In this document: one piece after another, positions 9,557 through 46,300 of the stretch | Position numbering within the stretch: the first letter of the stretch is position 1 | How the letters are laid out: each line of letters begins with the position of its first letter | Source of the DNA: an uncultured Gammaproteobacteria bacterium | Lineage (GTDB): Bacteria > Patescibacteriota > Microgenomatia > Levybacterales > GWA1-39-11 | Length of the DNA: 64,000 nt | Assembly (NCBI GenBank): GCA_964537315.1 | Contig: CAZIAP010000003.1 | Span: 463 to 64,462, forward strand | Direction: 5' to 3' | Translations under genes and position numbers: made by a program | Notes under the pieces: model-generated | Seen by the model: only the letters and a program-made list of their open reading frames with translations | What the model was told of the DNA's origin: nothing | Databases searched by the model: none

Positions 9557-9561
9557 ACCAA

Positions 9562-14102: not shown

Positions 14103-14122
14103 AGCTTCACTAGTGTGAGATT

Positions 14123-14153
14123 AGGGTCTCTCCCGAACTGCGGGAGAGACCCT
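14123..14153 (-). terminator. GC-rich hairpin downstream of P2
   Basis: It is a perfect 13-bp stem 'agggtctctcccg' / 'cgggagagaccct' with loop 'aactg'. Confidence 0.45.
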
Positions 14154-14179
14154 ATAAGGTAGCTTACGCTACCAACAGA

Positions 14180-14710: not shown

Positions 14711-14769
14711 TGCTTTGTCCTTTCATGCGCTAAGACAATAAATTCATCAGACTAACGTAGTCTGAATAG

Positions 14770-14969: not shown

Positions 14970-14981
14970 AGGTTATGTATA

Positions 14982-15029
14982 GAGTGGACCCCGCTAAGCG
15001 GGATCCACTCAGTTTGGTAGCTAAGCTAC
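14982..15029 (-). terminator. two tandem hairpins downstream of P3
   Basis: The hairpins are 'gagtggaccccgc taa gcgggatccactc' and 'ggtagc taa gctacc'. Confidence 0.4.
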
Positions 15030-15032
15030 CGA

Positions 15033-16427: not shown

Positions 16428-16514
16428 TAAAATTTCCTTTCATTGCGCACAATACGGTTTGGACACATCGTCCGTCAAATAGACAAGCTAATATCTACTT
16501 AACGGACGACATAT

Positions 16515-16656
16515 CTTATTTCCGTATATTTCTACGTTTCTCGTTTGTTAAAGTGCTGAGTAATCAGTAACACATCCATGCAATATGAAGTATTCCTGAA
16601 AATCTCATCTTTGATCTCAAACATTTGCTTGAAAGCAAAGATGAAACGAGAAACGC
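16515..16656 (-). promoter_or_regulatory. conserved leader/promoter element, copy 3 (upstream of P3; lacks the first ~60 bp of the unit)
   Basis: 'tttctacgtttctcgtttgttaaagtgctgagtaatcagtaacacatccatgcaatatgaagtattcctgaaaatctcatctttgatctcaaacatttgcttgaaagcaaagatgaaacgagaaacgc' is ~95% identical to copy 1. Confidence 0.55.
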
Positions 16657-16741
16657 ATATCTCTATTCACTGACCGTGCTTCGTATCAAATGTTGTCGGT
16701 TCAAATACCGACGATTTAATACATGACAATCATGAGTAGAG

Positions 16742-16776
16742 TATCCAAGGAGCCCCACAGAGCGGGACTCCTTGGA
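16742..16776 (-). terminator. GC-rich hairpin downstream of P4
   Basis: It has a 10-bp stem 'atccaaggag' / 'ctccttggat' with a 15-nt loop. Confidence 0.4.
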
Positions 16777-16786
16777 TTAGATGACT

Positions 16787-17833: not shown

Positions 17834-17850
17834 ATGAGCTAGGCTATGAC

Positions 17851-19182
17851 TTATCGGCGTCGACGTTGTCTGTTGATAGTTCGGACCTGAGACTTTTCTT
17901 CCTCAACCTCTTCGTTCTCTGATACCTCAGTATCTCGACTACGCATGAGGATAAGGATTCCCAGAGTCAAAAGTCCGAATACAACGGCTGCTGCTACAGG
18001 AGGGAACCAAAGGTAAGCTTCGCGACCGAAGTCCATCTCGACGTCCGCTATAAACAAATAGAGTCCGATGAGAAAGAAGACTACGGCTGCGATGACTGCT
18101 GCCGCACCTGCAATACTTAGCAAGTTGCTAGCAATCACACTTTTGGTTGCTTGACGCACCTCCCGAATAGCTGTTGAAGCCATTCGTTTGGCTTCTTTCA
18201 ATCCCTCATCTAGCTGTCCTATATGGACTGTATGCTGATTAAGGGTACGTTGTTGGTCTTCTTGAACTCGATCAGTTTCTTGAAATTTCTCTGCCGTTGT
18301 TTGAAGAAGACTGCGTATGTCGCCGATTTCCCGTTCATGCCGAGTAATCGACGTGTCGTGCTTATCCACTTGTTCGAAGCGAGTTTTGAATTCGTTTCTC
18401 ATAGAGCGGATTTCATCTAACACCGGATCTGTTTCTATAGGTGCTGGAGTGATATACACTTGAACGCCGATTCTAGCCACATCCCCTTGACTGTCTTTTA
18501 CTTCCACGACAAATGCATGCCGTCCAGTTTCTAACCCCTTTGTGGAGCCAGAGATATGACCGTTCTGGTAGAGGTGAAGACCAGGCGGAATTTGTTCCGC
18601 ACTCCAATGGTACGGAGGAGTTCCACCTTCCACCTCAAGAGTTCTATTGAGGAACTCTCCTTGACGAATCTCAACGACATTATCCCCAAATACTCTCAAT
18701 GGTTCGGGTTCTTCAGCAATAACGACAGGAGTAGTTTCTTCTGTCATTTCTTCCCCCTCATCTTCTTCAGGACCACCAACAGTATAGGTAGTGGCCTTAA
18801 TTTCCGGTTCTTCCGCCATTTCTTCCTCCTCTTTAACTTCCTCAGGTTCAGGAAGTGGTATGGGTTCAATGGTTTTCCGTACAGGAATCGGTTGATAATC
18901 CGCTACAGCTTCCTTATCTGGCTTGAGGTTGATGAATATGTTTATTCTATTCCTCAAGATGGACTTTGTACCTTTCGTACTAAGTCCCAGCTTTGCTGCA
19001 GCGGTGCGTATCGGTCGATAAGTGAGATCAGGATCATTGATATAATCCTGAAGTTCAGCCCATGTCATAGGTGGTTGAACGCGTATAGTCGTAGGCTTTC
19101 TTGTTGCCTTTCTACTACGAACTATTGCACTAACGATGCCGATTCCAAGTAGGAGTGAAATGATCTTTTTAGCTTTCTCCAA
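17851..19182 (-). CDS. membrane-anchored surface protein (SAP-like motif, acidic linker, Ig-like module, coiled coil, C-terminal TM hairpin)
   Basis: It has an N-terminal TM 'IISLLLGIGIVSAIV' and a SAP-like motif 'AAKLGLSTKGTKSILRNRI'. An acidic linker 'EPEEVKEEEEMAEEPE' is present. There is a He_PIG/cadherin-like Ig motif 'GGTPPYHWSAEQIPPGLHLYQNGHISGST'. Two C-terminal TM helices are present. Domain names are inference. Confidence 0.6.
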   Translation of the reverse strand: MEKAKKIISLLLGIGIVSAIVRSRKATRKPTTIRVQPPMTWAELQDYINDPDLTYRPIRTAAAKLGLSTKGTKSILRNRINIFINLKPDKEAVADYQPIPVRKTIEPIPLPEPEEVKEEEEMAEEPEIKATTYTVGGPEEDEGEEMTEETTPVVIAEEPEPLRVFGDNVVEIRQGEFLNRTLEVEGGTPPYHWSAEQIPPGLHLYQNGHISGSTKGLETGRHAFVVEVKDSQGDVARIGVQVYITPAPIETDPVLDEIRSMRNEFKTRFEQVDKHDTSITRHEREIGDIRSLLQTTAEKFQETDRVQEDQQRTLNQHTVHIGQLDEGLKEAKRMASTAIREVRQATKSVIASNLLSIAGAAAVIAAVVFFLIGLYLFIADVEMDFGREAYLWFPPVAAAVVFGLLTLGILILMRSRDTEVSENEEVEEEKSQVRTINRQRRRR

Positions 19183-26001: not shown

Positions 26002-26037
26002 AGGGGTTGACCCCCTTTTAGGGGTTTCAACCCCTAA
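26002..26037. repeat. two tandem REP-like GC hairpins adjacent to the Y1 transposase gene
   Basis: The hairpins are 'aggggttgaccccct' and 'ttaggggtttcaacccctaa'. They share an 'agggg...cccct' stem. Confidence 0.6.
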
Positions 26038-26686
26038 ATATGTCTTTCTCAATAATTTGAGGCTTAACTTTAAGAAAAGATTCTTTGTGTGATTGGGTAT
26101 CAGCAACAAAATCCTTATACTGACTTGGAGAAGAGAAAAAGGAAAGTATTAATCTTTTGTTACAAAAGCTATCCTGTGAGCGATCCAGGTACTCACGAAA
26201 GCTTGACCATTGATAGTTTTCTGCCACAATGCCCTGTGTAAACTCAGGGTGGTAATGAATAAAGCGTGAAAGCTCAAGAATCTGATTGTCGTTATCAAGT
26301 GCAGCGGCTCGATATCTACCATGCATGAGTCGTCCGAAACGCTTATACTTTTTATTGTAATACTCTGTGTAGGCATTATTTACTTGTTTCATAAAGCGTG
26401 GGATTGAGTCTTTGTCACTTTGGCGTAGTAAGAGATGAAAATGATCTGGAAGCAAACAATAACCGAATGCATCAATTTCCTCAGACATATTTTTAATTTG
26501 GAGCCTGAATGGTAAGGTCGGATAGGCATTTAAAACTTGCTTGAGCGGTTTAAGGTATATATAAATATAAAATAGAAAAGTCCTATAATCGTCTTCATCC
26601 TGAAACATGTGAGTATCAACACTTTTATTATATATATGGTAAGTTACTCCTTCAGAAAAATTTCTAACGATGTATTTAGAGGGCAT
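26027..26686 (-). mobile_element. IS200/IS605-family Y1 (HuH) transposase, REP-associated (RAYT)-like
   Basis: It has the HuH motif 'DHFHLLL' and a downstream 'YHP...Y' region. Its ~220-aa length is typical of Y1 transposases. It is next to REP-like hairpins. Confidence 0.55.
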
Positions 26687-28430: not shown

Positions 28431-31400
28431 TTAGTTGATAATTAAGAAATTAAATCTTATATCTTCTTCGACTGTCTTCTTTATCTTCACAGTGAATGAC
28501 GCGCTTTGTGATGATGCCTCACTTCGCTGCTCGAATATGAAAGGAGATTCTCCAAAAGTGTCACTAACAGGTGTTACATAAATTAATGAATTTTCAGTAA
28601 CATGAGGGTTCTCAATGGTTCTAATTGTTTCTCCTGCAGTAATAGTTGCTACGCCTGCTGATGCAGATGCTTGAGATAAGGTTGGAGATATATCAATGAT
28701 GTCATCAGTTGTGACATTAAGCGTTTTGGTTGTTAGTACTCCCGCCACCGCCACATTCTTTTCGAACTCCACGTTTTCAGTGAATCTAACAGTACCGTCA
28801 GTGTTGAAAGTAACAGCCCCAGCCATGATTGAGACAGGTTGTTGCTTAAGCGGTTGGATCTCAAGAGTGTCTGAGAGAGTATTGATAGAGTTTGAGTTAA
28901 TGACAAGTTCACCTGCACCGATAGCAAGGGTTTCTGTAATGGCCGCTTCTCGAAGGGTAGTGGTACCCAGAACTGTTAAGTCTGCATTAATGGTTGCAAA
29001 ATCAAAGTCTGCAAAATCAGCCTCAATACCTGCACCTAGGTCAAAGAAAGCACTACTTGAGGCAGTCAGACCAGAGATATTCTCAACGATAAGGTTTTTA
29101 ACTGTCAAGGTTTCTATACTTCCTTCATCAGCAATAATCTCAGGAGTGGTTACCGAACCTGCAAACTTTGCATTACCTGACAAGTCTACCGAGAAGAGAG
29201 CTCCTTGAGTTGATGTTTTATCCATGATTGAGAGCTTAGAATCACCAGTAATTACCTTAAAGTCAGACATGGCAATTTCATCAGTCGTAATTTTACCTGC
29301 AGCAAGCGTATTGTTGATAGTTAGACTATCGCTAGACAAGAATGAAGCATTAATATTTTCAAATAGTCCTGATGTGGCTACCAGGTTTGTAGCAAAGATA
29401 TCTTCACTCTCTATCTTGCCTGATTTGAGGTTGGCGATTGTGGCAGTGGAATAAACTCCAGTTTTATCAATAATATCTCCTGAATCATCTAAAGCCAGCC
29501 AATTTCCGTTATCCTCAACTATTTGTATATTTCCATCTGAGGCTATTTGTACAGCAGGGTCGTACCAAATTCCTTTGACAAAAATCATGACTGTACCAAC
29601 TTGATTAGGATCTGTATTGCTGTAGCTCTCAAGTGCTTGACCTACAATGAATCCTGCACGAGTTGCTTTCATACCTATACCTTCTTTTGAGGAGGAAGTA
29701 ATGTAGTCTCCAGGTTGGATTGCCCCATTTTCAGAAGTAACTTTAACCGGAACACGTCCTGCAAGAGCAATAGGTTGAGGATTATCAACAGAATTAATAT
29801 TATGTCCTATGCTGTTGAAATCTCCAGCTTTTGATTTATCGGACACGACACCTATGATTGATGATTGATATGGTTTTGTCGTCTTGACTAGCTGTTTGAT
29901 ATTGTCGCCATCTTTGGTTGTAACTGTATTAGAACCGATTGTAACCAAATCACCTAACCCTGTACCTGCTGCAACTGGATACATTTCCATGTAATCTGCG
30001 ACTGGGTCTGCATCACAGTCGTATATCAGCGATGCACCGCTATTGTCCCAGCAAAGAGCTGATCCTCCTCCGGAGCTTGCTGGAGTCAAATAGACATTAC
30101 CAGCTCCGCTTGGGCCTAAGACTAGTTCTGCTTCCGTTGGGGTACTGTCACCAATTCCGATATTTCCATTTACACTAACTACAGATAATGGGGTACCCGA
30201 AGAATTACGCCACTCCTGTAGATTTCCTGTTTGGCTAGTAATAGCCTGTACTGATAGAGTCGTGGCAGTTGTTCCACCGCTGAACATGTGGGCGGCTCCT
30301 CCTGATTCGGAATAGTGTATAGTGGTTTCACCAGAGCCGCCTTCTCTATATACTCCCCCCGTAGGTCTAATGGTTCCATTGATACGAAGATGAGTACTAA
30401 TATATGCAATATCCGTAAATGGTGCAAATCCCAGGGTGAAAAATCCACTTGATCCTACTTCTTCAAACGTAATCTTAGGAGAATTTGTGGTGTCTGATGC
30501 AAGGTGTAAAATTGATGCAGGTTGAAAAATGTTACCTCCGATACCATTGATACCCACATATCCAACATTATCTATTATAAATTTTGTTTGACCTGATGCA
30601 CTGGCAGTCAATATATCCTGATCTCCTGTTTCATTAAGTATCGTCAAGGCTTTTCCTACTGTAGAACCTTGAACATTAAATCCACCGAGAGCAGTTGCAA
30701 CTTGGTTTACTCCAATTGCTGTATTTCCGGTATCTACAACGAGAAGTCTATTGACATCTGCCCCGTTGCGGACTGCAAAACCAGTTGTACCATTTGATGC
30801 TCCTAGTTCTGCGACTAGATTCGAGCCAGAATTTAAATAAAGTCCTCCGATTGCAGTACCAATAGTTGCAAAGTTTGATGACCCGTCGTTAAAGTCAAGA
30901 CTACCTGCAAGATATAGGCTATCCCACCTAGAACCAGTTGATCCAAGATTATAGGCATCATTAGTTGTGGGTCCAATATCTCCAGCGACCTGAAGCTTGA
31001 AAGAAGGAGTAGTAGTTCCTATGCCCAAATTACCTGTACCTAAGTTAAACCATGCGTGTTGATTAGTGGTGCCTGGTAATCTAATTAATGCGCTTGAAGT
31101 AGAAGTCGCGCCTAGGGTTACATCCATAAAAGGGTGTACTAAGTGCACAGCTCCATTTGTCATGTCCCAATGATTCGTAGTAGTTCCATCACCGCCACAG
31201 TCTCCCCATTTATATGTGCCATCACCATTTGACTGTAGACATTTATTCAGAGTCCCCACACTAGCAAGCTGAGTAAGTACTCCGGAGCCATCAGTGTAGA
31301 GTAGACCCCCATCGGTAGTAAAGTCAGGAAGAGTAATAGATGAGCCATGGATTGTGACGGCATCTGCACCATCACCTAAATTGAGCACACCATTTGCAGT

Positions 31401-34400
31401 CAACGTACCATTAAAGGTTGAAGTACCACTAGTAGTAAGATTTCCCCCATCTGCAATTACAAATACATCATCTACATCAAACCCACCATTTGCATTTATA
31501 TTTGCAGCAAATGTTGAGATCCCTGCCACAGATAAGGTTGAATCGAGTGATGTCGCGCCAGTTGCATTAACTGTACCGACTACCGATAAGTTATGTGAAG
31601 GGTTGGCAATACCGATTCCTACATTTCCATCGTTTTGTATTACAAACCGTGTAGTCCCTGAAGCGCTGGCTGTAAATATCGCCTGATCTCCAGTTTCATT
31701 AAATATTGCAAGAGCCTTGCCTGTATCTTTTCCGTGTATCATGAGTTTTCCTGTATCTGGGGCAGTGAACCCTAAACGAAGATTACCGGACTCATCGAAG
31801 TGAGTAAGTACTTCATTTGTGCTACTTAAGAAGTCCAATAACCTTCCTGATTGGCCGAATGATCCCTTGATAGCGGTTAAGTTAGTAGCAGTATTATAGC
31901 CTTGAACCAGAAGTGAGTAGTCAGACGCGCCAGTACCGTTTACAAAACTAGGCGGTATTGTTTCACCTCGTGCTCCTAATATCTCGATACCATGGTACGA
32001 GTAGAGCTGCAGCTTACCGCCATTTGATGTCTGCAAAGCGTTTGCCTGATCACCCAACTGAACTCTTGCTGCCTCACCACTTGAGTATTCATTGCCTCCC
32101 ACACTAATAGTTCGAGGGCTTGTAGTGTTAGATCCGTCGATATTTAGATAGAGATTGCCACTATTTTGAACGACAAGTCGCGTAGTGCCCGAAGCACTAG
32201 CAACTAATAGGTTTTGTCCACTTGTTTCATCAAAGATAGCAAGTGCTCTACCGGTGGAGCCTTGTACAACGAGTCCTCCTAAATTTGTTGTCCCTGTAAC
32301 ATTTGCGTTACCCGCAACTGAAAGTTTGTGAAACGGATTTGTTAATCCTATTCCTACATTACCTGTACCTGAAAAAGCGAAGTTGTTGCTGTTAAGTGCA
32401 ATATTTGTTGCCCCTGTAAGTGTCCCTCCAAGGGTGATGGTGTTACTAGTTCTTGTAAGTCCGTTACTGAATGTGAGTGGAGCTTCATACAGAGAAGATA
32501 TATCAGACCAAACAGGGGAGCTTCCATTTGAAGTTAGGACAAAGCCATTACTTCCAATACCCAGAGTGTTCATAACACCAGTTCCACTTCCGTAGAGTAG
32601 AGAGCCTGAGATAAGAGATGTTACTCCTGTACCCCCGTTACCAACTGGTAAAGTACCTGTTACCTCGCTAGTCAAGTCTACAGATGTACCAAGAGTCGTT
32701 GATAACGTATTTCCAGATACTTGTAACCCTGAGCCTGCGAAATCGGAAATTGTGTCTCCACTGATTATCAATGAAGTTAGCGCAAGCGTATTAAATGTTG
32801 GAGATGAGGAAATAGTAAGGGCTTGACCAGTATCAAATTCTAGCTCATTGTCTCCGATTGAGTTTGCAGTGACTGACAAGGTGTGTGCAATACCTTCACC
32901 TGTGGTCGCGCCTGTTGAAGTAATGGTAGAGCTGCCTGTAATCGTTGCTACATAATTTCCTGTGGTGTGTGTTGTAAGCGCGATTAGGTTGTTAAGTGAA
33001 CTTGCGCCTGTTCCACCATTTGCAACAGGGAGTATCCCTGAAATATCTGTAGTTAGATCGATTTGATTTAATGTAATTACTTGGTCTGCAAGAGTGAGAT
33101 AATTATACGACCCTGCAAGAGAGACAGGATCATGAGCTGCACCTGAAATAGAGGAGTCAAGGTCAGCAAGAACGCCTTGGACAGTTGTAGCAGAAGAGTT
33201 TGTAAATTCGTCAAACACGCCTACGAGTGAAGCACCTGAAGTTAAATTATTAGACCCTGTGTCTGCTAAGCCAATTGAACCCACAGTGACTGATCCGAAC
33301 GTAGCGTTTCCTACAGTAGAAAGAGTAGAGCCTAATGTAACTGCCCCTGTTATGTTAGTGGTTCCAGTTACGGATAGTTTATGTAGCGGGTTTGTAGTTC
33401 CTATGCCTACATTTCCGTTATCAAATATGCTGGAATCATTTACTGCGAACTGTCCTGAAAACTTGGCAATAAAGTTAGTGGTTCCGGAACCTCCTAGGCC
33501 AGCACCAGTCCCTGAACAGTTACCTGATGTAAGACAGAATGTTCCACTACTATCTGGTAGAGTATATGTTTGATCACTTGTTAAGGTTGCAACTGTAAGT
33601 TCTCCTTCAAAACCTGAATTGTGCCAGAATAATGATGATCCAGAGCCTCCTGTTGTAAACGCGTTTCCAGATGGCACATCTCCTACAGCGCTGATGTCAC
33701 CAGCACCCGCTATGCCTGAGACTTCTTGCCACGATAACGTGCCTGCACTGTTTGAGGTTAGTACATAACCAGAACTTGCTGCATCCGTACCCGGCCATGT
33801 GTAGGTGACTCCGTTTAACTGTGTAGTACCTATATTTACTAAGTTACCAGATGAGTTTATGCGTACAGTACCGGCACCTGCGCCGGTATTGAGACCAGTA
33901 GTTGCGTTTAGCGTTGTTCCAGTTATGGTGTTAGTGGTTGAGATAATTCCAAAGCCTGATGCTATCGATCCAGAGGACAATGCTCCAGTAGAAGTAAGAG
34001 ATGAATTCGTAACTCCTGAACCAAGAGTTGATGCGCTAAGCACAGCAGTTCCGTTAATTAGATACGAGTTACTAGTAGAAATATTGATACTACCGGCAAC
34101 GTCTAGTTTTGCAGTACTTGGAGTCATCGTGCCAATTCCGAAGTTTCCGCCTGAAGCAAACCAACCGTGTTCATTAGACACACCAGGTAATCTAATAAGT
34201 GCACTACTTGTCGCATTACTTCCTATTAAGAGATCGTCTGATATATTTAGTGGAGCAATGCTACCCGTGTTTCTTTGCCAGTAGTTCAGTCCTGCTCCTG
34301 CTGCGGATTGCCATGTAGGTACTCCAGATGATATAGAAAGAACTGTCCCCTCAGCACCCGCTGAGAGTGCAGAAAGCACGTCGGCAGCTGACGCGTAAAG

Positions 34401-36782
34401 TATTGATCCTTGAGCAATTGTTGTAAGCCCTGTTCCACCTCTGGTAGGTGAGAGAGTTCCGGTAGTACCTGATCCTATCGGTAGACTAGTTGCATCAGTC
34501 AAATTAAAAGCAGGAGTCGTATCAGATTGTCCTAGCTGCAAGGTAATACCACCGTAATTTACGGTACTGCTTACTAAGGCAGATAGAGAAATTGACCCTG
34601 CAGGGAGTGTAATTGTTCCTCCACTTACCGTTAATCCATTTGAAATATATGCATTTCCCGTAACATCCAATGTTGCGTTTGATGCTGTAGTGTTACCAAT
34701 ACCAAGATTTCCGGTGTTAATAAATGAGTTTTGTCCTGCAGTTCCTGTAAACTTTATGAGTGCGCTACTTGTCGCATTACTTCCTATTAAGAGATCGTCT
34801 GATATATTTAAGGGGGCAACCGTACCTGCGTTGCGCTGCCAAAATGTTAAGCCTGCTCCAGATACGCTTGCCCAGGTTGGAACTCCCCCTGAAACAACCA
34901 ATACTTCATTTACAGAACCTATCGGAAGTTTAGTAAGTGTATTTGATCCAGATGCAAAAAGAATATCTCCGGTGGAGTATGTGGACTGACCTGTTCCACC
35001 TCTTGTTTCATCAACAACACTTTCAACAGCCCATGTTCCGCTTGTAATATATGGCACTCCGTTTGATCCTGATGTATTTAGTCCAGTTCCTCCGTAGGCT
35101 GTTCCAATAGCAGTTGCATTCCATGTGCCTGAGGTAATATTTCCTGACGTGTTAATCTGGAAAGCGTTTGCAGTGCCTGAGGTAAATGTTCCCGAGGTAT
35201 CAAGATTACCAGTAATCCCCACGGTTGAACCGTCATCCGTAATCGATGAATCTCCAATCGATGAACTACCTGTAAATTTTGCAAGCGTATTGGTAGTACC
35301 TGAACCTGAAAGAGCTCCTACTCCAGAAACTGATTGCCATGATAGTACTCCAAGTCCATTAGTAGTCAATACGTAGTTATTGCTTCCGTCATCTAGGGGG
35401 AGAGTATAAGTTGTGCTCTGAGCAAGTGCAGCAGGAGACTGAAATGACACATAATGTGAAGAATCACCATCTGCAAATAATAAGCTGCTTTGGTTCTTTA
35501 GTTGTATGGGAGATGTAAACTCCCAAGTTCCAGAAATAACTTCGTTTTGGTTACTTCGGGTAATTAGCGAGTTGGTATAGTCGATTACAATATTTACCTC
35601 GCCGCTTGGTAGTTCACTGAGGTCAAAATCAGTTCCGCTAAAATCAAGTGTATCAGCAGCATTCGTTAAAAGTAGACCTCCTTCTTTAACGTTTACAACA
35701 CCAGCACTCATACCTCCTACATCAGGCGCACATTCCCATACTTGAGATATATTATCCCATTTCAAAACATCGCCATCGTCACATCCTTGCAAGAGAGATA
35801 GTTGATTAGAACCAGTTCCGGCAAACTCTAAACCTGAATTTGAAGACATACTTCCGATGCCGTCAGAAGAACTTAAAAGATCTATTACGAGCGAGTTTGA
35901 TGCAATATTTAACCCATTTCCGGTTAGGCTAGTAAAAGAATTTCCATCTCCACCTATTTGCAAAGAACCTGAAGCAAGGATATTACCTGATACGACTAAT
36001 TTTTCAGTCGGTGTGCTCGTGCCAATCCCTACATTACCTGTGCTGTTTGTGAGATAAACAGAGTTTGCAGACTCTGTCCAGGGTGAAGAAGTTGCAGTTC
36101 CAGTTATGGTGATTGTTTTTGTACTTGTATTAGTCGAGAGGATAATTCCGTTTCCTGCCGCAAAGGTTATAGTATCTCCTGTACTACCTGCAGAAAAAGA
36201 AGATCCTCCTGCTGTAATAGTAGAAAATATGTTTTGATCGTCTGTGTCAGTTATGGTTGAGGAGATGGTTAAGCCGTCAATTTCGATACCGTCTCCTGCA
36301 CTTAGCGTAATTGCTCCAGTCTGTCCTGCGAGTGACAGAACACCTGTATTCGAAAGAGTAGGAGACTGTCCACCCGTTGAAGCTAGTCCAGCTCCAACTG
36401 ATACAGCATTAATAATATTAGGACCTGTTATCCCAGCTTCAAACACTGCGTCACCTCGTACTACCAGAGCGTCACGATAAAGCGTAGGGAGATTAATTGC
36501 TAATGTTCCTTTAACCTCACTACCATCTGGATTTAGTTCAGGTAAATCAGCAAGGTTTTCTGTAGGCACCTCAGGTTGCTGTCGAGAATTAAGACTTAAA
36601 TACGAAAAGCTAATGAAAACTATGATTAGTATAGCGGTCAAGGGAGCGGCGTATGCCAACATATATTTTCGTATATTGCCTGAGGATTTATTATCGTAAA
36701 CCTTTAGAGGGTTAACTTTTGGCGCAGGAATAGGTATTTCATGTGAAAGCTGATCCTTAATTTGTCCTAAGTTCTTATCCAT
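28431..36782 (-). CDS. giant repetitive cell-surface protein 1 (2783 aa)
   Basis: It has an N-terminal TM anchor 'LAYAAPLTAILIIVFISFSYL'. It is rich in G/T/S/N beta-type repeats ('GNVGIGTTNP..KLSV.G..NITG'; 'LPVANGGTGASSLNNLI'). The C-terminal ~215 aa are identical to giant protein 2. Confidence 0.85.
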   Translation of the reverse strand: MDKNLGQIKDQLSHEIPIPAPKVNPLKVYDNKSSGNIRKYMLAYAAPLTAILIIVFISFSYLSLNSRQQPEVPTENLADLPELNPDGSEVKGTLAINLPTLYRDALVVRGDAVFEAGITGPNIINAVSVGAGLASTGGQSPTLSNTGVLSLAGQTGAITLSAGDGIEIDGLTISSTITDTDDQNIFSTITAGGSSFSAGSTGDTITFAAGNGIILSTNTSTKTITITGTATSSPWTESANSVYLTNSTGNVGIGTSTPTEKLVVSGNILASGSLQIGGDGNSFTSLTGNGLNIASNSLVIDLLSSSDGIGSMSSNSGLEFAGTGSNQLSLLQGCDDGDVLKWDNISQVWECAPDVGGMSAGVVNVKEGGLLLTNAADTLDFSGTDFDLSELPSGEVNIVIDYTNSLITRSNQNEVISGTWEFTSPIQLKNQSSLLFADGDSSHYVSFQSPAALAQSTTYTLPLDDGSNNYVLTTNGLGVLSWQSVSGVGALSGSGTTNTLAKFTGSSSIGDSSITDDGSTVGITGNLDTSGTFTSGTANAFQINTSGNITSGTWNATAIGTAYGGTGLNTSGSNGVPYITSGTWAVESVVDETRGGTGQSTYSTGDILFASGSNTLTKLPIGSVNEVLVVSGGVPTWASVSGAGLTFWQRNAGTVAPLNISDDLLIGSNATSSALIKFTGTAGQNSFINTGNLGIGNTTASNATLDVTGNAYISNGLTVSGGTITLPAGSISLSALVSSTVNYGGITLQLGQSDTTPAFNLTDATSLPIGSGTTGTLSPTRGGTGLTTIAQGSILYASAADVLSALSAGAEGTVLSISSGVPTWQSAAGAGLNYWQRNTGSIAPLNISDDLLIGSNATSSALIRLPGVSNEHGWFASGGNFGIGTMTPSTAKLDVAGSINISTSNSYLINGTAVLSASTLGSGVTNSSLTSTGALSSGSIASGFGIISTTNTITGTTLNATTGLNTGAGAGTVRINSSGNLVNIGTTQLNGVTYTWPGTDAASSGYVLTSNSAGTLSWQEVSGIAGAGDISAVGDVPSGNAFTTGGSGSSLFWHNSGFEGELTVATLTSDQTYTLPDSSGTFCLTSGNCSGTGAGLGGSGTTNFIAKFSGQFAVNDSSIFDNGNVGIGTTNPLHKLSVTGTTNITGAVTLGSTLSTVGNATFGSVTVGSIGLADTGSNNLTSGASLVGVFDEFTNSSATTVQGVLADLDSSISGAAHDPVSLAGSYNYLTLADQVITLNQIDLTTDISGILPVANGGTGASSLNNLIALTTHTTGNYVATITGSSTITSTGATTGEGIAHTLSVTANSIGDNELEFDTGQALTISSSPTFNTLALTSLIISGDTISDFAGSGLQVSGNTLSTTLGTSVDLTSEVTGTLPVGNGGTGVTSLISGSLLYGSGTGVMNTLGIGSNGFVLTSNGSSPVWSDISSLYEAPLTFSNGLTRTSNTITLGGTLTGATNIALNSNNFAFSGTGNVGIGLTNPFHKLSVAGNANVTGTTNLGGLVVQGSTGRALAIFDETSGQNLLVASASGTTRLVVQNSGNLYLNIDGSNTTSPRTISVGGNEYSSGEAARVQLGDQANALQTSNGGKLQLYSYHGIEILGARGETIPPSFVNGTGASDYSLLVQGYNTATNLTAIKGSFGQSGRLLDFLSSTNEVLTHFDESGNLRLGFTAPDTGKLMIHGKDTGKALAIFNETGDQAIFTASASGTTRFVIQNDGNVGIGIANPSHNLSVVGTVNATGATSLDSTLSVAGISTFAANINANGGFDVDDVFVIADGGNLTTSGTSTFNGTLTANGVLNLGDGADAVTIHGSSITLPDFTTDGGLLYTDGSGVLTQLASVGTLNKCLQSNGDGTYKWGDCGGDGTTTNHWDMTNGAVHLVHPFMDVTLGATSTSSALIRLPGTTNQHAWFNLGTGNLGIGTTTPSFKLQVAGDIGPTTNDAYNLGSTGSRWDSLYLAGSLDFNDGSSNFATIGTAIGGLYLNSGSNLVAELGASNGTTGFAVRNGADVNRLLVVDTGNTAIGVNQVATALGGFNVQGSTVGKALTILNETGDQDILTASASGQTKFIIDNVGYVGINGIGGNIFQPASILHLASDTTNSPKITFEEVGSSGFFTLGFAPFTDIAYISTHLRINGTIRPTGGVYREGGSGETTIHYSESGGAAHMFSGGTTATTLSVQAITSQTGNLQEWRNSSGTPLSVVSVNGNIGIGDSTPTEAELVLGPSGAGNVYLTPASSGGGSALCWDNSGASLIYDCDADPVADYMEMYPVAAGTGLGDLVTIGSNTVTTKDGDNIKQLVKTTKPYQSSIIGVVSDKSKAGDFNSIGHNINSVDNPQPIALAGRVPVKVTSENGAIQPGDYITSSSKEGIGMKATRAGFIVGQALESYSNTDPNQVGTVMIFVKGIWYDPAVQIASDGNIQIVEDNGNWLALDDSGDIIDKTGVYSTATIANLKSGKIESEDIFATNLVATSGLFENINASFLSSDSLTINNTLAAGKITTDEIAMSDFKVITGDSKLSIMDKTSTQGALFSVDLSGNAKFAGSVTTPEIIADEGSIETLTVKNLIVENISGLTASSSAFFDLGAGIEADFADFDFATINADLTVLGTTTLREAAITETLAIGAGELVINSNSINTLSDTLEIQPLKQQPVSIMAGAVTFNTDGTVRFTENVEFEKNVAVAGVLTTKTLNVTTDDIIDISPTLSQASASAGVATITAGETIRTIENPHVTENSLIYVTPVSDTFGESPFIFEQRSEASSQSASFTVKIKKTVEEDIRFNFLIIN
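28775..29428. repeat. ~655-bp near-identical segment shared with 37757-38411
   Basis: About 570 bp are identical ('gtgaatctaacagtaccgtcagtgttgaaagtaacagccccagccat...cttgcctgatttga'). A few mismatches occur near the 5' edge. Confidence 0.85.
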
Positions 36783-37374
36783 ATTAACAGCTAAAAATAC
36801 TATGAGATTAATTATCTATATAAAAAATCAATTGTTTTAGCTACAATTTTAAGTTCATGAAAAGCATAGTATATATAGTGTAGGGAAGGTTTGAAAAATA
36901 TGTCAATAGTTTTGTGAAAAGTTGACCTATTACGAAACAGTTAAGTAATAGTTGTTCTTTTACTATAAGGTTTGTATTTTAATTTCTGATTAATACAGCT
37001 GTTTTATTTGTAACAAATCAGGCACTATATGAGATTAATAACTTATTGTCAAAACATCAATTGTAAGAATAGATAAATAGCACTTAATTTTAGGGTCTAA
37101 TTACCAATTAGATTGTTAAATCAGTCTAAACAGTGATCAAAAAGAGTATACGAAAAGGGGTATATTAAATATTTTTCTTCAAATAGATAATGTGCGTGAA
37201 AAATTATCGTTTTAGCGTGAAACAGCCGTAAGGATTTATGATAATATGTAAAATTTATCAAATAGTATTTTATTATTTACAAATATGAGAGTAAAGGAAA
37301 TATTATTTTCACGAGTGATAAGTGTTTATACTCAGAGTAATTTACATACAATTTAGGTATTATTCTACTCTTAT

Positions 37375-40300
37375 TTAGTTGACTATTAGGAAGTTAAATC
37401 TAATATCTTGGTTTACAACATTTTCTATTTCAACTGTAAAGTGCTGTCCTGCTACTTGATTCTTGAGATATACTTGCTGGCCACCTGTTGATCCTACAGG
37501 TGTAATAAAGATTAATGAGTCTTCGGTTACATTATCGTTATTTACCCGTACCTGTGTTTGATAAGCTTTGAGTGTGACAAGTCCTGCTGATCCTGAGGCA
37601 TTCACAGTCGTATTATTAACTACTTCTGGTGCTGTGGCTTCAACTCCAATTCTTTCAAAGTTAGCTGACCCTGATACGTTCAGTACATCATTTACACCTT
37701 TGATTACACTGGTTACGAGTTCTCCTTCAACAGAGACATTTTTTTCAAAGGCGACATTTTCAGTGAATCTAACAGTACCGTCAGTGTTGAAAGTAACAGC
37801 CCCAGCCATAATTGAGACAGGTTGTTGCTTGAGAGGTTGAATCTCAAGCGTATCTGACAGAGTATTGATAGAGTTTGAGTTAATGACAAGTTCACCTGCA
37901 CCGATAGCAAGGGTTTCTGTAATGGCCGCTTCTCGAAGGGTAGTGGTACCCAGAACTGTTAAGTCTGCATTAATGGTTGCAAAATCAAAGTCTGCAAAAT
38001 CAGCCTCAATACCTGCACCTAGGTCAAAGAAAGCACTACTTGAGGCAGTCAGACCAGAGATATTCTCAACGATAAGGTTTTTAACTGTCAAGGTTTCTAT
38101 ACTTCCTTCATCAGCAATAATCTCAGGAGTGGTTACCGAACCTGCAAACTTTGCATTACCTGACAAGTCTACCGAGAAGAGAGCTCCTTGAGTTGATGTT
38201 TTATCCATGATTGAGAGCTTAGAATCACCAGTAATTACCTTAAAGTCAGACATGGCAATTTCATCAGTCGTAATTTTACCTGCAGCAAGCGTATTGTTGA
38301 TAGTTAGACTATCGCTAGACAAGAATGAAGCATTAATATTTTCAAATAGTCCTGATGTGGCTACCAGGTTTGTAGCAAAGATATCTTCACTCTCTATCTT
38401 GCCTGATTTGATATTTGCAGCAAATAGATCAGCATATGCTTTGCTGTCTTGCGCTATATCTCCGTTGTCGTTTATGACTAGCCAGTCATTTCCATTCTGA
38501 GCAATCTGAAGTTCGCCATTTGCGGCAAACTGAATATTAGGATCATGCCAACCAGGGTTCAAATAAACTTTAATTGTTCCGCAAACAGCATCAGTAGATT
38601 CACTTGCTGGACAGACGTGAGTATTTCCAATGCCGGTTGATGGATTAAAGTCAGATAATGCACGACCTACTATTTCACCTGCATTTATTGCTTTGGCCCC
38701 ATATCCTCGTATTTGTGATGCAGTAATTGGATCCCCAGCTTTAATTGGTCCATTTATATTACTTACTTTTACCGGTAATTGTCCGGTAAGACCAACTAGT
38801 ACGTTGGTTAGTTCATAATTCGAGTCACAATTGAGGTCCTCTGAATCGCAGACAGGTCCATTTCCAACGAACCCAGGAGTATCAGATACAATACCTACAA
38901 TTGCGTTTGAACCATTTGCGCTTCTAACTGTATTGCTTTTGGTTGAGTCAACCATGACAATTTCACCAACTGTTGGTTTTGGTTCAAGTTGGTTAAATAG
39001 GAAGTACTCTGCATAATCTCCACCTGAAGTCGAGTAAACAACCGCGTTAGTTGCTCCTTGAATTTTTCCGGTTATGGTTGTTCCACCTGAGCTTCCTCCG
39101 AATGAGATTAAGTAATTATTAGCTCCCCATCCAGCAGTGCCTCTTCCATTAGAAACGAGTATTCCTCTACTAGTGGTGCCTGTGTTTGTATTATGAAATT
39201 GCGCAACATATTGAGTGGTTGTAGAAAATGATGCCTCAACGTGCAGCTGTCTTCCTGTCGGTAGAATAGAAGCTCCTATTGCGACAGGTTCAAGAAGGAA
39301 AATGCTGCTTGAATTTACTGTCATTCTCGTCGCTCCTGCTGCAGAAAAGACCATGCCGTTTCCGGAAGATCGAGAAATTCCGGTGTTTGATCCAGATGAA
39401 AAGCTGAGACCTGGTAGAGAAGATGTTCCATCTGCAGCGAATATTCGCCTATTTGAATCAATTACTGTGGTTCCTCCAGATTGGAGGCTGCCTGATACAA
39501 TGTTGAATGAATCGCCTGACGCAAGCGCCAGTGTATTTACGCCTGATCTGTAAAGTTCAACATCGGTGCCAAATCCTATACCGCCTGCGGCAGTTGTGTG
39601 ACTAGCAAGCTCAAGTATATGCCCAGGTGCTGTTGTGCCGATTCCAAGGTTGCCAACTCCGGTAAGTCTCATATTCTCTACAGCACCACCGGACTCAAAA
39701 ATAAGATCGTTTGCTGAGTTACTGCCAAATCCTGCACGAGTTCCTTTACTATCAGGTTCAAAAAATCCTATCATAAAATCACGATTTATACGCATATCGC
39801 CTTCGACGTGTAGTTTATACTGCGGAACATTGGTTCCAATTCCGATATTCCCTCCACTATTAATAAAGAGTGAATTCGTTGAGGCTCCTTCTTCAATACT
39901 GAATGGACCAGTAGCGTTGCTGATATCCCAAAAGCCGATAGTTCCGTTTGTATTGGTAAAGAGCGACCATTGATTTGTGCTACTTCCGTCTTCTAACCAT
40001 AGCTCAGTATTTCCTGATCCAGATTTCAGGTGTAGTTTTCCTCCAGGGGAAGTTGTGCCAATACCAACGTTACCTGATGTGGGGTTGAGAATAAGGTTAG
40101 CAGCTGCGTTGATGGTTAAGTCACCTGATGAGTTACCAATTGTTGAGTTTGTTCCACCAACCGAAAGTCTAGCAGTAGGGTTGGTTGTGCCGATACCAAG
40201 ATTACCGCTTGTTGTGAGAGATAGTAATGGGTTAAGAGATCCAGCATGTCCATTGAGGCCGATAAAGAAGTTATCGTTTGCTGTGTTGATTCCCAGTGCA

Positions 40301-43300
40301 TAATCAAGGTTTGTGCTACATCCATCGCCGGAAGTACATTGTACGTGTAATGAGTCAGGACCAAGATATAGATTCCTCCATCGGGCAGATCCCGAAGCAC
40401 CCAAATCGTAGGTATCGTCTGCTCCAGGCAGGAAGTGACCACCAACATTAAAGAATGCTCTTTGAACCCCTGCAGTAGCAAAATTTAAAGTATCTGACCC
40501 GTCTCCATAGATACCGGTATTAGTGTCAGATGAGAATGAAAATGCCGGTGTTGCGGCGCTACCATTTGCGGCAGTAAATAATCTGTCTGATGTTATAGTG
40601 TTGACTCCACCCATTTGAAGAGAACCGGAGACAATATTTAATGAATCACCTGATGCAAGCGCCAGTGTATTAGAGCCTGATCTATACAGTTCAACATCAG
40701 TACCAAATGCTATACCGCCTGCAGCAGTTGTGTGATCAGCCAATTCAAGTCTGTGGGTAGCAGCAGTTGTACCGATTCCAATATTTCCAGTAGATCCGTT
40801 AACAAAGAAATTGCCTGACCCAAAGTTAATATTATTGCTCCCCATTGATACATTCCAGTCAGCATCTAATGTCATGGTATCTGCAAGTTCTGAAAAATCC
40901 AGACAGTCTGTACAGCTGAAATCGCTTGCAGTTAGTGTGCCTCCTGTCAACTCAAGTCCTGCTTGAGTGCCAATTGTAAGTTTTCCATCACTATCAACGG
41001 TAAATGACGCGTATTTACTTGCATCTGTGTGAGTTAGTCGAAGCTGTTCTGATGTTGATAATATTTCAGTCTTTGCATCAGGAGTGGTCGTACCCATACC
41101 GATATTACCTGCTGAGTTAATAAGTAGCCTTACGCTGCCATTACCGAACGGATCAGCGTCATCAGAAGCAGATGTGTAGAAGAAGAGATCAGTTGGTACG
41201 TTATTTGAAGATACGGCACCGTTTACCAAAGCACCAAAGCCTGCATTATGTCTATACACTCCACCTTCGTAGTTCTTAAAGAAGAATATTCCGTTATAGT
41301 CGCCGTTTTGGACACTTGCAGGAGAGGTAAGTGTACCTCTGCTTTTTCTGAAATTGAATTGAGCAGCATGAGCAGCATTGCTGTGCTGGTCTAAACTGAT
41401 ACCTCTATTCCCGGAAGTACCGTCTGTAGTGACATGCAGCTGAGCGACAGGAGCTGTTGTGCCAATACCTACTTGACCGAGTGAGGTATCTACGTATAGT
41501 TGGTTAGTGTTGATAGCAAAATCTCCGGCACCTGATAAGTTAATATTTAGGTTATTGCCTGCGTTTGGAGTAATTGAAAGAGCTCCGGACGAAGTAAGCG
41601 CATTGCCTGAAAGATTAAGTGTTCCTGCAATATCATTTGACGTACCATTAAAGTCAATATTTCCTCCTACAGTTAATGTACTATCAAAACTTACTGATCC
41701 GTTTACACCAAGAGTAGAGCCAAGTGTTGTTGCACCTGTTATATTTGTTGTTCCAGCGACCGAAAGTTTGTGTGATGGGTTAGTAATTCCAATACCAAGA
41801 TTTCCTGTTCCAAGGTTAAAGAAGGCATCTTGATTAGTAACGCCCGGTAGTTTGATAGTTGCACTTGATGTAGCTGTGCTCCCTATAAGTACATCAAGTG
41901 TAGTATTAGTCAAGTGCAGTGCGCCATTTGACTGATCCCACCAATTCGTAAATGTTCCTTCACCGCCGCAGTCTCCCCAGGTGTATGTGCCATCACCATT
42001 TGATCGAAGACACTCATCAACACCGCCTGTTGTAGCAAGCTGAGTAAGTACTCCGGAGCCATCAGTGTAGAGTAGACCCCCATTGGTAGTAAAGTCAGGA
42101 AGAGTAATAGATGAGCCATGGATTGTGATGGCATCTGCACCATCACCTAAATTGAGTGCACCATTTGCAGTCAACGTACCATTAAAGGTTGAAGTACCAC
42201 TAGTAGTAAGATTTCCCCCATCTGCAATTACAAATACATCATCTACATCAAACCCACCATTTGCATTGATGTTGGCTGCAAATGTAGAAATTCCGTCTAC
42301 TTGAAGGGTAGACCCTAGTGTAGCTGCACCTGAGATGTTGGTTGCGCCGTTAACATTGAGTTTATATGATCCTGGAGAAGTTGTGCCGATTCCAAAGTTG
42401 CCAGCAGCGTCAACAACCGACAACGCATTGCCTGAAGCATCTTGCCACTCTTGTAAGTTGTGAGTTTGAGATGTGTGACCTTGTAAGGCAAGAATTAATG
42501 AGCTGTTTTGATCATTTCGTACTCTGAGGGATGCATCTGAAGCTCCACTTCCGGAAACAAATGTAGGGCTATTTGTGTTGCCTCTTGCTCCGATAATTTC
42601 AATTCCATGGTAACCGTAGATTTGTGTACTTCCTCCGTATAGGCTTTGGAATCCATTGTAAGGATCCCCGAACTGTACTCTAACTGCTTCACCGGATGAC
42701 AAGTTGTAAAATCCTATTGCACGTGGCGCACTAGTTGTGCTTCCATCCGTATTAATTCCCATGTCACCTGCCACGGTAAGCGTACTTCCAATTGTTGTTA
42801 ATCCTGTTATATTTGTTGTTCCATCTACTGAAAGTTTGTGAGACGGATTGGTAATTCCGATACCTACGTTGCCAGCAAAATAACCGCTACCATCGTAGCC
42901 TACATTAAAGACCTCAGTTCCGTCACTTTGTACGCCGCTGAATAAGTCTGCACCTGCACCCCCACCTTTTGCGCGAAGTACAGCTTCAAATGCAGCCGAA
43001 GCACCTGCGTCGGTGGTAAATTCATGCGCACCAAATGCACCCCCTCCAAGGCCTCCCCGCACACTATATCCAAGTCTTTTATTCGCTATATCATATTTTA
43101 TTAAACTGCCTGAGTTATCTCCTATATTTAAATCTCCAATTTGGATTCCGGTGGTACCAGGCCCAGTATTAGAAATTACAAGTGACTTTTTATTTGTAAC
43201 GTTACCTTGGTCTATAGTTACACTTCCTGCTACGTGGAGCTTGTTGCTTGGAGCAGTTGTCCCAATTCCTACATTTCCTGTTCCACTTATATTGAAATCA

Positions 43301-46300
43301 AACCCACCATTTGCAATAGTAGTGTTTTCGGTTAAGGTACCACCGAGTCCAATGGTATTAGTTGATCTAGTTAGTCCGTTATTGAAGGTAAGAGGAACTT
43401 CGTAATCTGTTCCAGCTTCAAGAGGTAATTGATAGTCAGTACCGGCAACAGCGTTTGAAAGAACACCGCTTGCATCAGACATCACCAATCCAGAACCAAG
43501 TCCTGAGACAGTAAGTCCAGCAAAGGTTGGAGTAGAAGCTGTAGTTAAGTGTTGTCCAGTGTTGAATGCAAGTTGAGCATCACCAATAGAGTCTGCGTTG
43601 ATAGCAAGGGTAATTCCAGCATTTTCGCTTCCAGAACCAGTTACACTGATTTGGGTGTTACCTGTAATGGTAGCCACATAGTTACCTGTGGTGTGTTGTC
43701 CAAGAGCGATCAGATCGTTTAGAGTAGTAGCTCCGGTACCACCATTAGCTATAGGCAAGATTCCGCTCACATCAGCTGCAAGGTCAATTGCAGTTAATGT
43801 GATCTCCTGATCGGAGAGGGTTAGATAATCATAACTCCCTGCTAAAGTAACTGGATTATGAGAAGCTACTGTGATAGCTGTATCAAGATCTGCTAATACT
43901 CCTTGGACAGTTGTTGCGGAGCTGTTAGTAAATTCGTCAAACACACCCACCAATGATGCACCGCTGGTTATATTTGATACCCCCACATCTTCAAGGCCAA
44001 TTGTACCTAATGTTAGAGATCCGAATGTCACACCAGAAGCTGTAGTTAAGTGTTGTCCGGTATTATATTCAAGTTGAGCATCACCAATAGAGTTTGCGTT
44101 GATTGCAAGCGTGATTCCTGCGTTTTCACTTCCTGAGCCTGATACACTGATTTGAGTATTACCTGTAATGGTAGCCACATAGTTACCTGTGGTGTGTTGT
44201 CCAAGGGTAATTAGATCATTAAGCGTGTTGGCTCCGGTACCGCCATTGGCAACAGGAAGAATTCCTGTGACTTCAGATGTAAGGTCAATATCTGTTCCTA
44301 AGGTTGTAGAAAGAGATGATCCTGAAAGGGTAAGTCCCGTACCTGTGAAGTCAGTTATTGTATCTCCTCCTACATTGATTCCATTGCTAAATGTTGCAAG
44401 ACCAGTAACGCCAAGTGTTGATCCAAGTGATGTTGCACCAGTTGCATTAACTGTTCCAACTACTGATAAATTATGTGCAGGGTTGGTAATACCAATTCCT
44501 ACATTTCCGTCATTTTGTATTACAAAACGAGTAGTGCCTGATGCGCTTGCGGTGAGAATGGCTTGATCTCCTGTTTCATTAAATATCGCCAGTGCTTTAC
44601 CTGGAACATAGCCATTCACGTTAAACGCACCAAGATTTGTCATCGGAGCGGCTTGATTTACTCCAAGAGAAAAATGTCCCATGTCTCCGACTATTAAACG
44701 ATTGGTTGACGAGCTATTTCTGACAAAGAAGCCAGTTGTGCCTGATGCTCCTCCTAAATGGTTTATGATACTAGTATTTGCATTTAATATTAGTCCGGAA
44801 AGCGTCATTTCCATGTGTCCTGAAGATACTCCGTCATGAAAGTCTATTCTATCTGTAAGATATAGGGAATTCCATCGTCCTCCTGTACTGCCTAAATCAT
44901 ATACAGCGTCAGTTGCAGGACCAATATCTCCTTCTACTTGCAATCTAAATGCAGTTGGAGTAGAAATTCCGATACCCACATTGCCAGTACCAGAGAAGGT
45001 AAAGTTGTTACCGTCGAGATCAAGGTCTGTACTGCTTGTGAGTGTACCACCGAGTCCGATTGAGTTAGTTGATCGAGTTAGTCCATTACCGAAAGTAAGA
45101 GGAACTTCGTAATCTGTTCCAGCCTCAAGTGGTAACTGGTAGTCAGTACCGGCAACAGCATTAGAAAGAACTCCATTTGCATCAGACTTAACAAGACCTG
45201 TGGAGAGACCTGATACAGTAAGTCCAGCAAAGGTTGGAGTAGAAGCTGTAGTTAAGTGTTGTCCAGTGTTGAATGCAAGTTGAGCATCACCAATAGAGTC
45301 TGCGTTGATAGCAAGGGTAATTCCAGCATTTTCGCTTCCAGAACCAGTTACACTGATTTGGGTGTTACCTGTAATGGTAGCCACATAATTACCAGTGGTA
45401 TGAGTACCAAGAGTAATCAGATCGTTTAGAGTAGTAGCTCCCGTACCGCCATTGGCAACAGGAAGAATTCCTGATACGTCAGTTGCAAGATCAATTGCGT
45501 TTAAAGTAATTTGTTGACCAGATAGCGTAAGGTAATCATAGCTACCTGCAAGCGTTACGGGGTCATGACTTGCACCTGAAATCGCTGAGTCTAAATCAGC
45601 TAGAGCTTGTTGAACAGTGGTAGCATCTGAATTGGTAAACTCATCATATACACCGATTAGTGACGCACCTGAGGTGATATTTGAAGCACCTGCATCTTCT
45701 AATCCAACACTACCAAGAGTAAGTGATCCGAAAGTTACGTCTGAGGAGGTTGCAATACTCTGAGGAAGAGAAAGAGTAATATTACCGGTTGCGCCAGAAA
45801 CAGAGACCTGGTTTGCAGTGCCTGCAAGAGAGAGTACTCCTGAGTTAGCAATAGTAGTACCTGTGATAGTAATACCTGCACCTTCTGCAAGGGTAATGTT
45901 GCCTGTTGCACCTTGGAAGGAGAGAACACCTGTGTTTGTAATCGTGTTTCCTGTTCGGTTTAATCCGGTTGAGAAAGTAAGCGGCACTTCATAGTCTGTA
46001 CCAGCCTCAAGTGGTAACTGGTAGTCAGTACCAGCAACAGCAACTGCCAGTTCACCTGTAGGAGAGATAGCTTTCACTAGTCCTCCAGCGTTTAGACCAG
46101 AGAGAGTCATACCTGAAAAAGTAGGAGTAGATGTAGTTGCAATACTTTGTGGTAGAGACAGGGTAATATCTCCACCTATAACTCTACCAGTACCACCAGT
46201 AACCGATATCTGATCAGCAGTACCGATTACATCTGAGAGCGATGTGACGCCTGTTCCACCGCTTGCAACAGGTAGAGTTCCTTCAACTTCAGATTCCAGG

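Follow-up and report, generated by a model that had tools for sequence, protein, structure and literature searches.

Two tandem giant genes share an internal near-identical block

We analysed a 64,000-nucleotide stretch of DNA (64 kb of contig CAZIAP010000003.1, hereafter the window) that carries two giant genes, A and B, with a shared block of identical sequence near their 3′ ends. The window is a piece of bacterial chromosome encoding Pth, ribosomal protein S1, RadA, Rho, an M23/LysM peptidase, glycosyltransferases and an ATP synthase operon, with no tRNA gene in the 64 kb. The best named matches of its AtpA protein are Candidatus Levybacteria sequences, the top one 78% identical, and homologues of the C-terminal region of the giant proteins come from Levy-, Dojka-, Woese- and Saccharibacteria. 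Because both the AtpA matches and these homologues lie in lineages within the Candidate Phyla Radiation (CPR, or Patescibacteria), the host organism is, as judged from these matches, a CPR bacterium (Candidatus Levybacteria).

Genes A (28431–36782, 2783 amino acids (aa)) and B (37375–58239, 6954 aa) are tandem paralogues on the minus strand separated by a spacer of 592 nucleotides (nt), and the open reading frame (ORF) list agrees with the initial annotation of the stretch on both. Protein A, matched exactly by entry P0193 of the representative library, begins with a short cytoplasmic stretch and a single transmembrane helix (~aa 41–62), beyond which lie a long ectodomain of repetitive sequence and, at the C-terminus, a fibre-tip region. 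Protein B has two N-terminal MerR-type helix-turn-helix (HTH) domains, one transmembrane helix (~aa 222–245), many ectodomain repeats and again a C-terminal fibre-tip region. The N-terminal regions that include the transmembrane helix are homologous, with A 7–286 aligning to B 179–495, and no Pfam match was found for the long repetitive middle regions of either protein.

Comparison of the two genes by blastn revealed a single near-identical block, 28727–29428 in A and 37710–38411 in B, that aligns ungapped over 702 nt, 96.7% of them identical, at an offset of 8983; all remaining matches between A and B are at most 83% identical. Within this block lies a perfectly identical core of 553 nt on the minus strand, located at 28876–29428 in A (100% in an ungapped comparison at offset 8983) and at 37859–38411 in B (blastn and ungapped comparison). 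The initial annotation had noticed the block and proposed the A-versus-B comparison, and blastn and the ungapped scan both return what it anticipated, one near-identical block within diverged flanks. Its A coordinates, 28775–29428, enclose 654 nt at 98.9% identity, and the partner start shifts by one position, from 37757 to 37758.

The two borders of the block differ in character. At the 3′ end in gene orientation, a fringe on the minus strand (A 28770–28875, B 37753–37858) encodes the same amino acids with seven synonymous differences, all at third codon positions between 28827 and 28875, and in the ungapped scan identity fades below ~28775. The other border is sharp, with identity falling from 30/30 to 10/30 directly past 29428. 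An earlier conversion event, or mismatch repair that was patchy, probably accounts for the fringe. At the protein level the identical stretch is 219 aa long (A 2453–2671, B 6611–6829). It is not the shared C-terminal end that the initial annotation had taken it for, as diverged tails of 112 aa (A) and 125 aa (B) with 42% aa identity follow it.

The flanks on either side are homologous but diverged, with 40–55% nt and 20–55% aa identity in a codon alignment of the C-terminal 870–940 aa. A 553-nt perfect run against flanks of ~50% identity corresponds to a probability of 0.5^553, ruling out chance, and flanks that are only ~50% identical rule out a recent duplication of the whole gene. Purifying selection or protein constraint alone is ruled out by the synonymous sites: the ~135 synonymous sites in the perfect core are all identical between A and B, and the same segment has a proportion of synonymous differences (pS) of 0.65 against a related genome.

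A related genome carries a second tract in the same segment

By scanning species-representative genomes with an alignment of the C-terminal module, we found contig CAYVAJ010000006.1, which shares downstream synteny with the window: a TPR protein (88% aa identity) and a Y1-like protein (73%) follow in the same order. This contig is titled 'uncultured Gammaproteobacteria bacterium'; its genes are 73–88% identical to the Levybacteria-like window and to CPR proteins, and from these identities the label is probably wrong. Three genes on the contig bear the module, X1 (2514 aa), X2 (2882 aa) and X3. The C-terminus of X1 is orthologous to that of B (57.6% identity over the C-terminal 549 aa of B, 81% aa in the tail), and the N-terminal 719 aa of X2 are 64% identical to the first 715 aa of A.

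X1 and X2 are separated by 18.2 kb that include two large genes, and a single near-identical block is common to them: it is 393 nt long and 98.2% identical, and its seven mismatches are mostly at third codon positions and fall in the 3′ part. A five-way codon alignment places this block in the same columns as the 3′ part of the window block. The 3′ border lies at the same motif, ..EFEKNV, in both genomes; the 5′ borders differ. The core of X3 is only 39% identical at the aa level and is not homogenised.

Divergence of the core and the tail follows opposite patterns. In the core, A and B are 96% identical in nt and 99% in aa with a synonymous divergence (dS) of 0.15, and X1 and X2 are 98% and 99% identical with dS 0.07; the four between-genome pairs reach 78% nt and 89–90% aa with dS 1.4–1.6. 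In the tail, the orthologous pair B–X1 is 73% identical in nt and 81% in aa (dS 2.2), and the paralogous pair A–B is 51% and 42% identical with dS saturated. Thus the core is closer within each genome and the tail is closer between orthologues, the pattern expected of concerted evolution, established here against one related genome. Near-identity within genomes together with saturated synonymous divergence between them implies at least one conversion per lineage after the split. On these comparisons conversion appears to have recurred in each lineage, which is concerted evolution. In both genomes the differences cluster at the 3′ end of the tract, as overlapping events with variable endpoints would leave. 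Between genomes the nonsynonymous divergence (dN) of the core is ~0.09 and dN/dS is ~0.06, a ratio indicating strong purifying selection on the core.

The block lies between a chaperone-like domain and a tailspike-type tail

The C-terminal 560–625 aa of A and B have a common layout of a Peptidase_G2-like domain, a linker, a small β domain, a strand-rich conserved core and a β-sandwich tail, and ~50 diverged residues separate the G2-like domain from the block. In A the G2-like domain (aa 2263–2409; 29556–29996, minus strand) starts at DYMEMY, is recognised by a match of the family profile to PDB 3gqh and is modelled by AF2 with a predicted local distance difference test score (pLDDT) above 90. 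In B it (aa 6408–6567; 38539–39018, minus strand) starts at DYAEYF and is matched by PF11962 as well as by the profile to 3gqh. The PF11962 score in B is 33.7 bits on a C-terminal fragment (cut-off 25) and a sub-threshold 23 bits on a longer fragment; A has no Pfam match for the domain and belongs to the family by alignment and profile.

Residues D692 and E695 of phage phi29 gp12 are presumably the conserved Asp and Glu of its cleavage site. A profile built from 50 family members matches the phi29 gp12 autochaperone (3gqh) from chain residue 1, with the profile string DiAEyy aligning to residues 1–6 (DFAEYF) of the released phi29 fragment, and alignment positions D39 and E42 are at least 90% conserved across the 50 family sequences. 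Because mature phi29 gp12* ends at residue 691 (PMC6542822), the aligned Asp is taken to be D692, the first residue past the cleavage site, an assignment made by alignment. By analogy, the G2-like domain may cleave itself. Cleavage of the phi29 kind would release ~520–550 aa from the C-terminus, and the block would go with them.

Downstream of the block, the A-type tail (28431–28769, minus strand; 112 aa plus stop) is a predicted β-sandwich (pLDDT >90) ending in ..FNFLIIN, a soluble C-terminus with no hydrophobic or sorting motif. The B-type tail (37375–37752, minus strand; 125 aa plus stop) is the orthologue of the X1 tail of the relative. The initial annotation had suggested that the shared module might be a secretion or anchoring signal, a reading that finds no support here. 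The membrane anchor is instead the N-terminal transmembrane helix, and the block sits between the Peptidase_G2-like domain and a tailspike-type β-sandwich.

A first AF2 model of 559 aa was uninformative over the block (pLDDT ~40), with the G2-like domain above 90. A second model of block plus tail, made with a deeper alignment, reached a mean pLDDT of 83.8 and comprises a small β domain, a strand-rich segment and a terminal β-sandwich. Foldseek searches with this model return the C-termini of phage tail fibres and tailspikes, including lambda J, T4 gp34, the Pam1 tailspike, the K64-1 depolymerase and R-pyocin fibres, together with many Caudovirales proteins carrying a K1-lyase_C domain. A and B are membrane-anchored giant surface proteins that resemble phage tail fibres; we infer for them trimeric fibre assembly and a role in host or cell-surface recognition. 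Searching exhaustively with HMMER, we found block plus tail as a module in 642 representative clusters; among the 150 that score best it is C-terminal in essentially every case, in proteins of 1–3.8 kaa. The module has no Pfam family, and neither C-terminus has a phmmer match in the PDB or a match in PHROGs.

The domains around the block are mosaic beyond the block itself. X2 carries a Peptidase_S74 domain (PF13884; 48 bits, cut-off 22) with the motif SDRRLK of the SDxxxK type, and P0001, a metagenomic protein, combines S74 (35.8 bits) with a core ~80% identical to that of the window and an A-type tail. No S74 domain was found in window genes A and B. The N-terminal orthologues A and X2 accordingly differ in chaperone, G2-like in A (aa 2263–2409) and S74 in X2 (~residues 517–570 of fragment 8000–10723), implying that a more extensive module replacement, of greater age, took place in one lineage. 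The same core thus occurs behind either a G2-like or an S74 chaperone and before either an A-type or a B-type tail, which points to repeated module exchange among these genes; the identical block is the most recent exchange in genes that have repeatedly swapped modules.

Probable recurrent gene conversion and its alternatives

We conclude, with a probability of roughly 85%, that the block is a gene-conversion tract produced by intrachromosomal, non-reciprocal homologous recombination between paralogues in direct orientation, the recombination step being deduced from its product. Recombination between copies 8,983 bp apart would have overwritten ~0.55–0.65 kb of one gene with the sequence of the other, and the event would be very recent, with zero substitutions accumulated in 553 nt. 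In the related genome, X1 and X2 would have independently undergone homogenisation across the 3′-most 393 nt of this segment, such that the core evolves in concert within each genome and the flanking chaperone domain and tail stay distinct. Purifying selection on the core (dN/dS ~0.06) probably preserves enough nucleotide identity for recombination to start, and divergence of the flanks, or selection for distinct tails and chaperone domains, may bound the spread of the tract. The initial annotation had read the sharp borders as recent gene conversion, and this reading gains from the position of the tract inside a homologous region of ~50% identity and from the second tract at the same place in the relative. 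Its suggestion that exchange could vary or homogenise a functional module holds for homogenisation, the effect seen here, and not for diversification.

Several points count against this interpretation. The two-copy structure of the window is known from the assembly alone. Only one close relative was found, and the best match in a metagenome scan was 46%; the loci from that scan show no near-identical repeats within or between them, and self-comparison of the more distant Levybacteria loci L003–L005 showed no comparable tract. The first half of the block (~aa 1–45 and 110–140 of the modelled fragment) is poorly predicted, which leaves its structural role uncertain, and cleavage by the G2-like domain, a putative activity by analogy with phi29, would if real shed the block from the cell-bound protein. 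Because the four between-genome core identities are equal (78%), they do not indicate which gene was the donor.

The principal rival, which we regard as possible but doubtful and which would refine the conversion reading, not exclude it, gives selection the leading part: the segment would be kept identical because the fibres share a partner or receptor or form mixed trimers, conversion would be only the mechanism, and conversions reaching into the tails or the chaperone domain would be purged. The shared 3′ border at ..EFEKNV, set against 5′ borders that are not shared, fits such purging, although the same coincidence is expected without selection if recombination stops where identity collapses. 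This rival also draws on the conservation of the core, the best-conserved part across lineages (89% aa between the genomes, ~80% to P0001) with its low dN/dS, and on its occurrence behind two kinds of chaperone and before two kinds of tail; against it, no candidate partner protein can be named, and X3, with its divergent core, has escaped homogenisation. The fullest form of the idea, that the core is genuinely the constant region in a modular system of fibres, subject to recurrent conversion under selection and serving one shared partner, we consider unlikelier still. Were it correct, a single assembly or processing factor, a cell-surface docking site or mixed trimers would serve all fibres, and the upstream chaperone (G2-like or S74) and the downstream tail would be free to vary; if G2 or S74 also cleaves, the core would belong to a released C-terminal fragment common to the fibres, one with its own function.

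The remaining explanations fare worse. Independent horizontal insertion of the same foreign cassette, from a phage or another strain, into both genes is very improbable: the module is structurally like phage tail fibres and the proteins are mosaic (A is G2-like where its N-terminal orthologue X2 has S74), but a single conversion explains the block more parsimoniously than two insertions sharing both their 5′ and their 3′ ends, and the block, at a GC content of 0.40, does not stand out. Moreover, the two genomes' cores have diverged (78% nt, dS ~1.5) to an extent comparable with the orthologous B–X1 tail (73% nt, dS ~2.2), as vertical descent combined with homogenisation inside each genome would leave. 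An assembly or polishing artefact, in which the reads of one paralogue built both copies or a repeat was collapsed or duplicated, has a marginally smaller chance. It would be favoured by an exact repeat of 553 nt, which exceeds typical short-read k-mers, and by an exact look-up of protein A in the contig index that gave no match. Yet both copies are in frame with family-homologous sequence on both sides, so that each gene needs a segment at that position; the 3′ border fades through seven exclusively synonymous differences instead of ending abruptly; mis-mapped reads could not homogenise paralogues diverged by ~50%; and the independent assembly of the relative contains a tract at 98.2% identity that collapse could not produce.

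Programmed variation, by a diversity-generating retroelement (DGR) or by donor cassettes of the pilE/pilS kind, is the least credible of the alternatives. CPR bacteria are rich in DGRs, and the affected genes encode surface proteins, which makes the setting suggestive. A DGR is nevertheless rejected: no reverse transcriptase was found among the scanned window ORFs of at least 150 aa, the mismatches are of mixed type (G/A, A/G, C/A, A/C, G/C) and synonymous at third positions, not adenine-specific, and a tract of 553–702 nt is far above the DGR repeat length (~100–150 nt). Silent cassettes are likewise rejected for the window, where a tblastn search located the block only in A and B, the two full genes, plus a weak G2-like stretch in ORF 58570–59439; neither additional copies nor cassettes lacking a promoter turned up. 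What results is homogenisation and not diversification, which also leaves without support the cassette exchange creating variation that the initial annotation had considered.

Comparison with known systems

The phenomenon is of a well-known kind, gene conversion between paralogues, in a new setting, the giant tail-fibre-like surface proteins of CPR bacteria. Literature searches on gene conversion in CPR surface proteins found no paper, and an Omnitrophota giant-gene preprint does not cover the topic. Concerted evolution by gene conversion between bacterial paralogues is exemplified by tufA/tufB and the opa and pil families, with which A and B share a near-identical, sharp-bordered tract in otherwise diverged genes, paralogues more similar than orthologues and homogenised synonymous sites. 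Unlike those cases, only an internal ~0.4–0.65 kb of genes of 8 kb and 21 kb is homogenised here, and the window gives no sign of dedicated donor cassettes or antigenic switching.

Among cellular proteins the closest analogue of A and B may be the MAT fibre family of Bdellovibrio bacteriovorus, whose fibres end in mosaic tips, some bearing an S74 chaperone and some lacking it (PMC10769870). Links in sequence and fold are weak, with profile and fold matches to the Bd2439 fibre 8ol4 at E = 0.009 and 0.07. Both are multigene families of surface fibres built from modules like those of phage tail fibres, with mosaic C-terminal tips and S74 in some members (here X2 and P0001). However, the proteins here are 3–7 times longer, have an N-terminal transmembrane anchor in place of the MAT signal peptide and conserved N-domain (β-rich, ~130 aa), and mostly carry a G2-like chaperone that is followed by ~370 further residues instead of the protein end.

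Two phage systems resemble parts of the C-terminal region. The phi29 gp12 pre-neck appendage is matched at the D-x-A/M-E-Y start of the domain, which aligns to DFAEYF, and by PF11962 above the cut-off in B; its autochaperone is 163 aa long and protein-terminal, whereas ~520–550 aa including the block and tail follow the motif here, A has no Pfam match and cleavage is putative. Tailspike C-terminal β-sandwich domains of the K1-lyase_C type (PF24146), including those of the Klebsiella K1 lyase (7w1c), the cyanophage Pam1 tailspike (7eea) and the K64-1 depolymerase (9k4a), superpose on the predicted tail with Foldseek probability 1.0 over 78–104 columns, and several members of the module family carry PF24146. 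The sequence similarity is marginal by comparison (E = 0.025, below the cut-off), and the likeness is to the tail, not to the converted block.

Other features of the giant genes and the window

A second, older stretch shared by A and B on the minus strand, 30981–31523 versus 41752–42294, is 81% identical in nt overall and 92% over 288 nt; its offset of 10771 is not collinear with the main block (8983). Because the B–A spacer contains a promoter-like site at 37024–37052 on the minus strand, TTGACA-17-TATAGT (11/12 matches, by consensus alone), gene A may have its own promoter.

The N-terminus of B is unusual. Residues 12–91 (57967–58206, minus strand) form the two MerR-type HTH domains, followed by a linker, the transmembrane helix and the giant ectodomain, and all 24 homologues of this double-HTH region are short proteins (200–500 aa), often with SH3_3 domains, and none is giant (0/24). 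Two readings offer themselves: B is a DNA-binding protein tethered to the membrane and bearing a 6.7-kaa ectodomain, or a gene upstream has been fused to it (through a lost stop, or with a true internal start near M153). Further along, B contains an internal repeat expansion at 43300–55300 with many units at 1188-nt spacing; most repeat families are 60–91% identical, one 44-nt unit recurs exactly, and the largest pair (51989–53247 versus 53177–54435) is 85% identical over 1260 nt. X1, the C-terminal orthologue of B, is only 2514 aa long, compared with the repeat-expanded B.

An antisense ORF of 170 aa on the plus strand (28696–29208) lies in the converted block, and the relative keeps this frame open in its two copies as well (311 aa and 181 aa; 73–78% identity). 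This ORF is likely an artefact of composition or codon bias, since similarly long antisense ORFs occur elsewhere in the giant genes (33805–34284 and 49124–50020).

Divergent from B on the plus strand, a 289-aa ORF (58570–59439) contains a stretch resembling the G2-like chaperone domain of the giant proteins, with 37% identity over 94 aa to A, 32% to X1 and a weak Pfam Peptidase_G2 match (E = 0.086); the ORF may encode a chaperone-like protein that stands alone, or may be a fragment of a gene. On the other side of the giant genes, a 219-aa ORF at 26027–26686 (minus strand) has a weak match to an IS200-like Y1 transposase (E = 1.7e-6). Its counterpart in the relative also adjoins the TPR protein (merged L001+L002, 33138–33794) and is 73% identical in aa. 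Given this conserved position, the ORF looks like a resident, possibly domesticated gene and not a recently mobile insertion sequence.

A block of higher GC content (0.45–0.48) at 12722–19182 holds several minus-strand ORFs that lack Pfam matches except for one with a He_PIG Ig-like domain. Partly homogenised repeats inside it pair 13973–14103 with 16528–16657 (95%), 15034–15491 with 16788–17242 (81%) and 17366–17476 with 17468–17578 (98%). The region is probably a second family of surface-protein paralogues that also exchange sequence.

Implications

Gene conversion between paralogous surface-protein genes is in itself textbook biology, and the present case is a clear but ordinary instance of recurrent conversion. 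Exact repeats of 0.4–0.55 kb inside giant genes are a hazard for the assembly of metagenome-assembled genomes and for orthology calls. Beyond this, with a between-genome control in hand, the locus indicates that giant surface-protein genes in a CPR bacterium with a reduced genome are under active remodelling by homologous recombination, which homogenises one internal module while its neighbours stay distinct or are swapped (G2-like versus S74). The widespread C-terminal module, which lies outside any Pfam family, ties giant cellular proteins to the architecture of phage tail fibres and is a plausible candidate for a part of the apparatus by which an episymbiont contacts its host.

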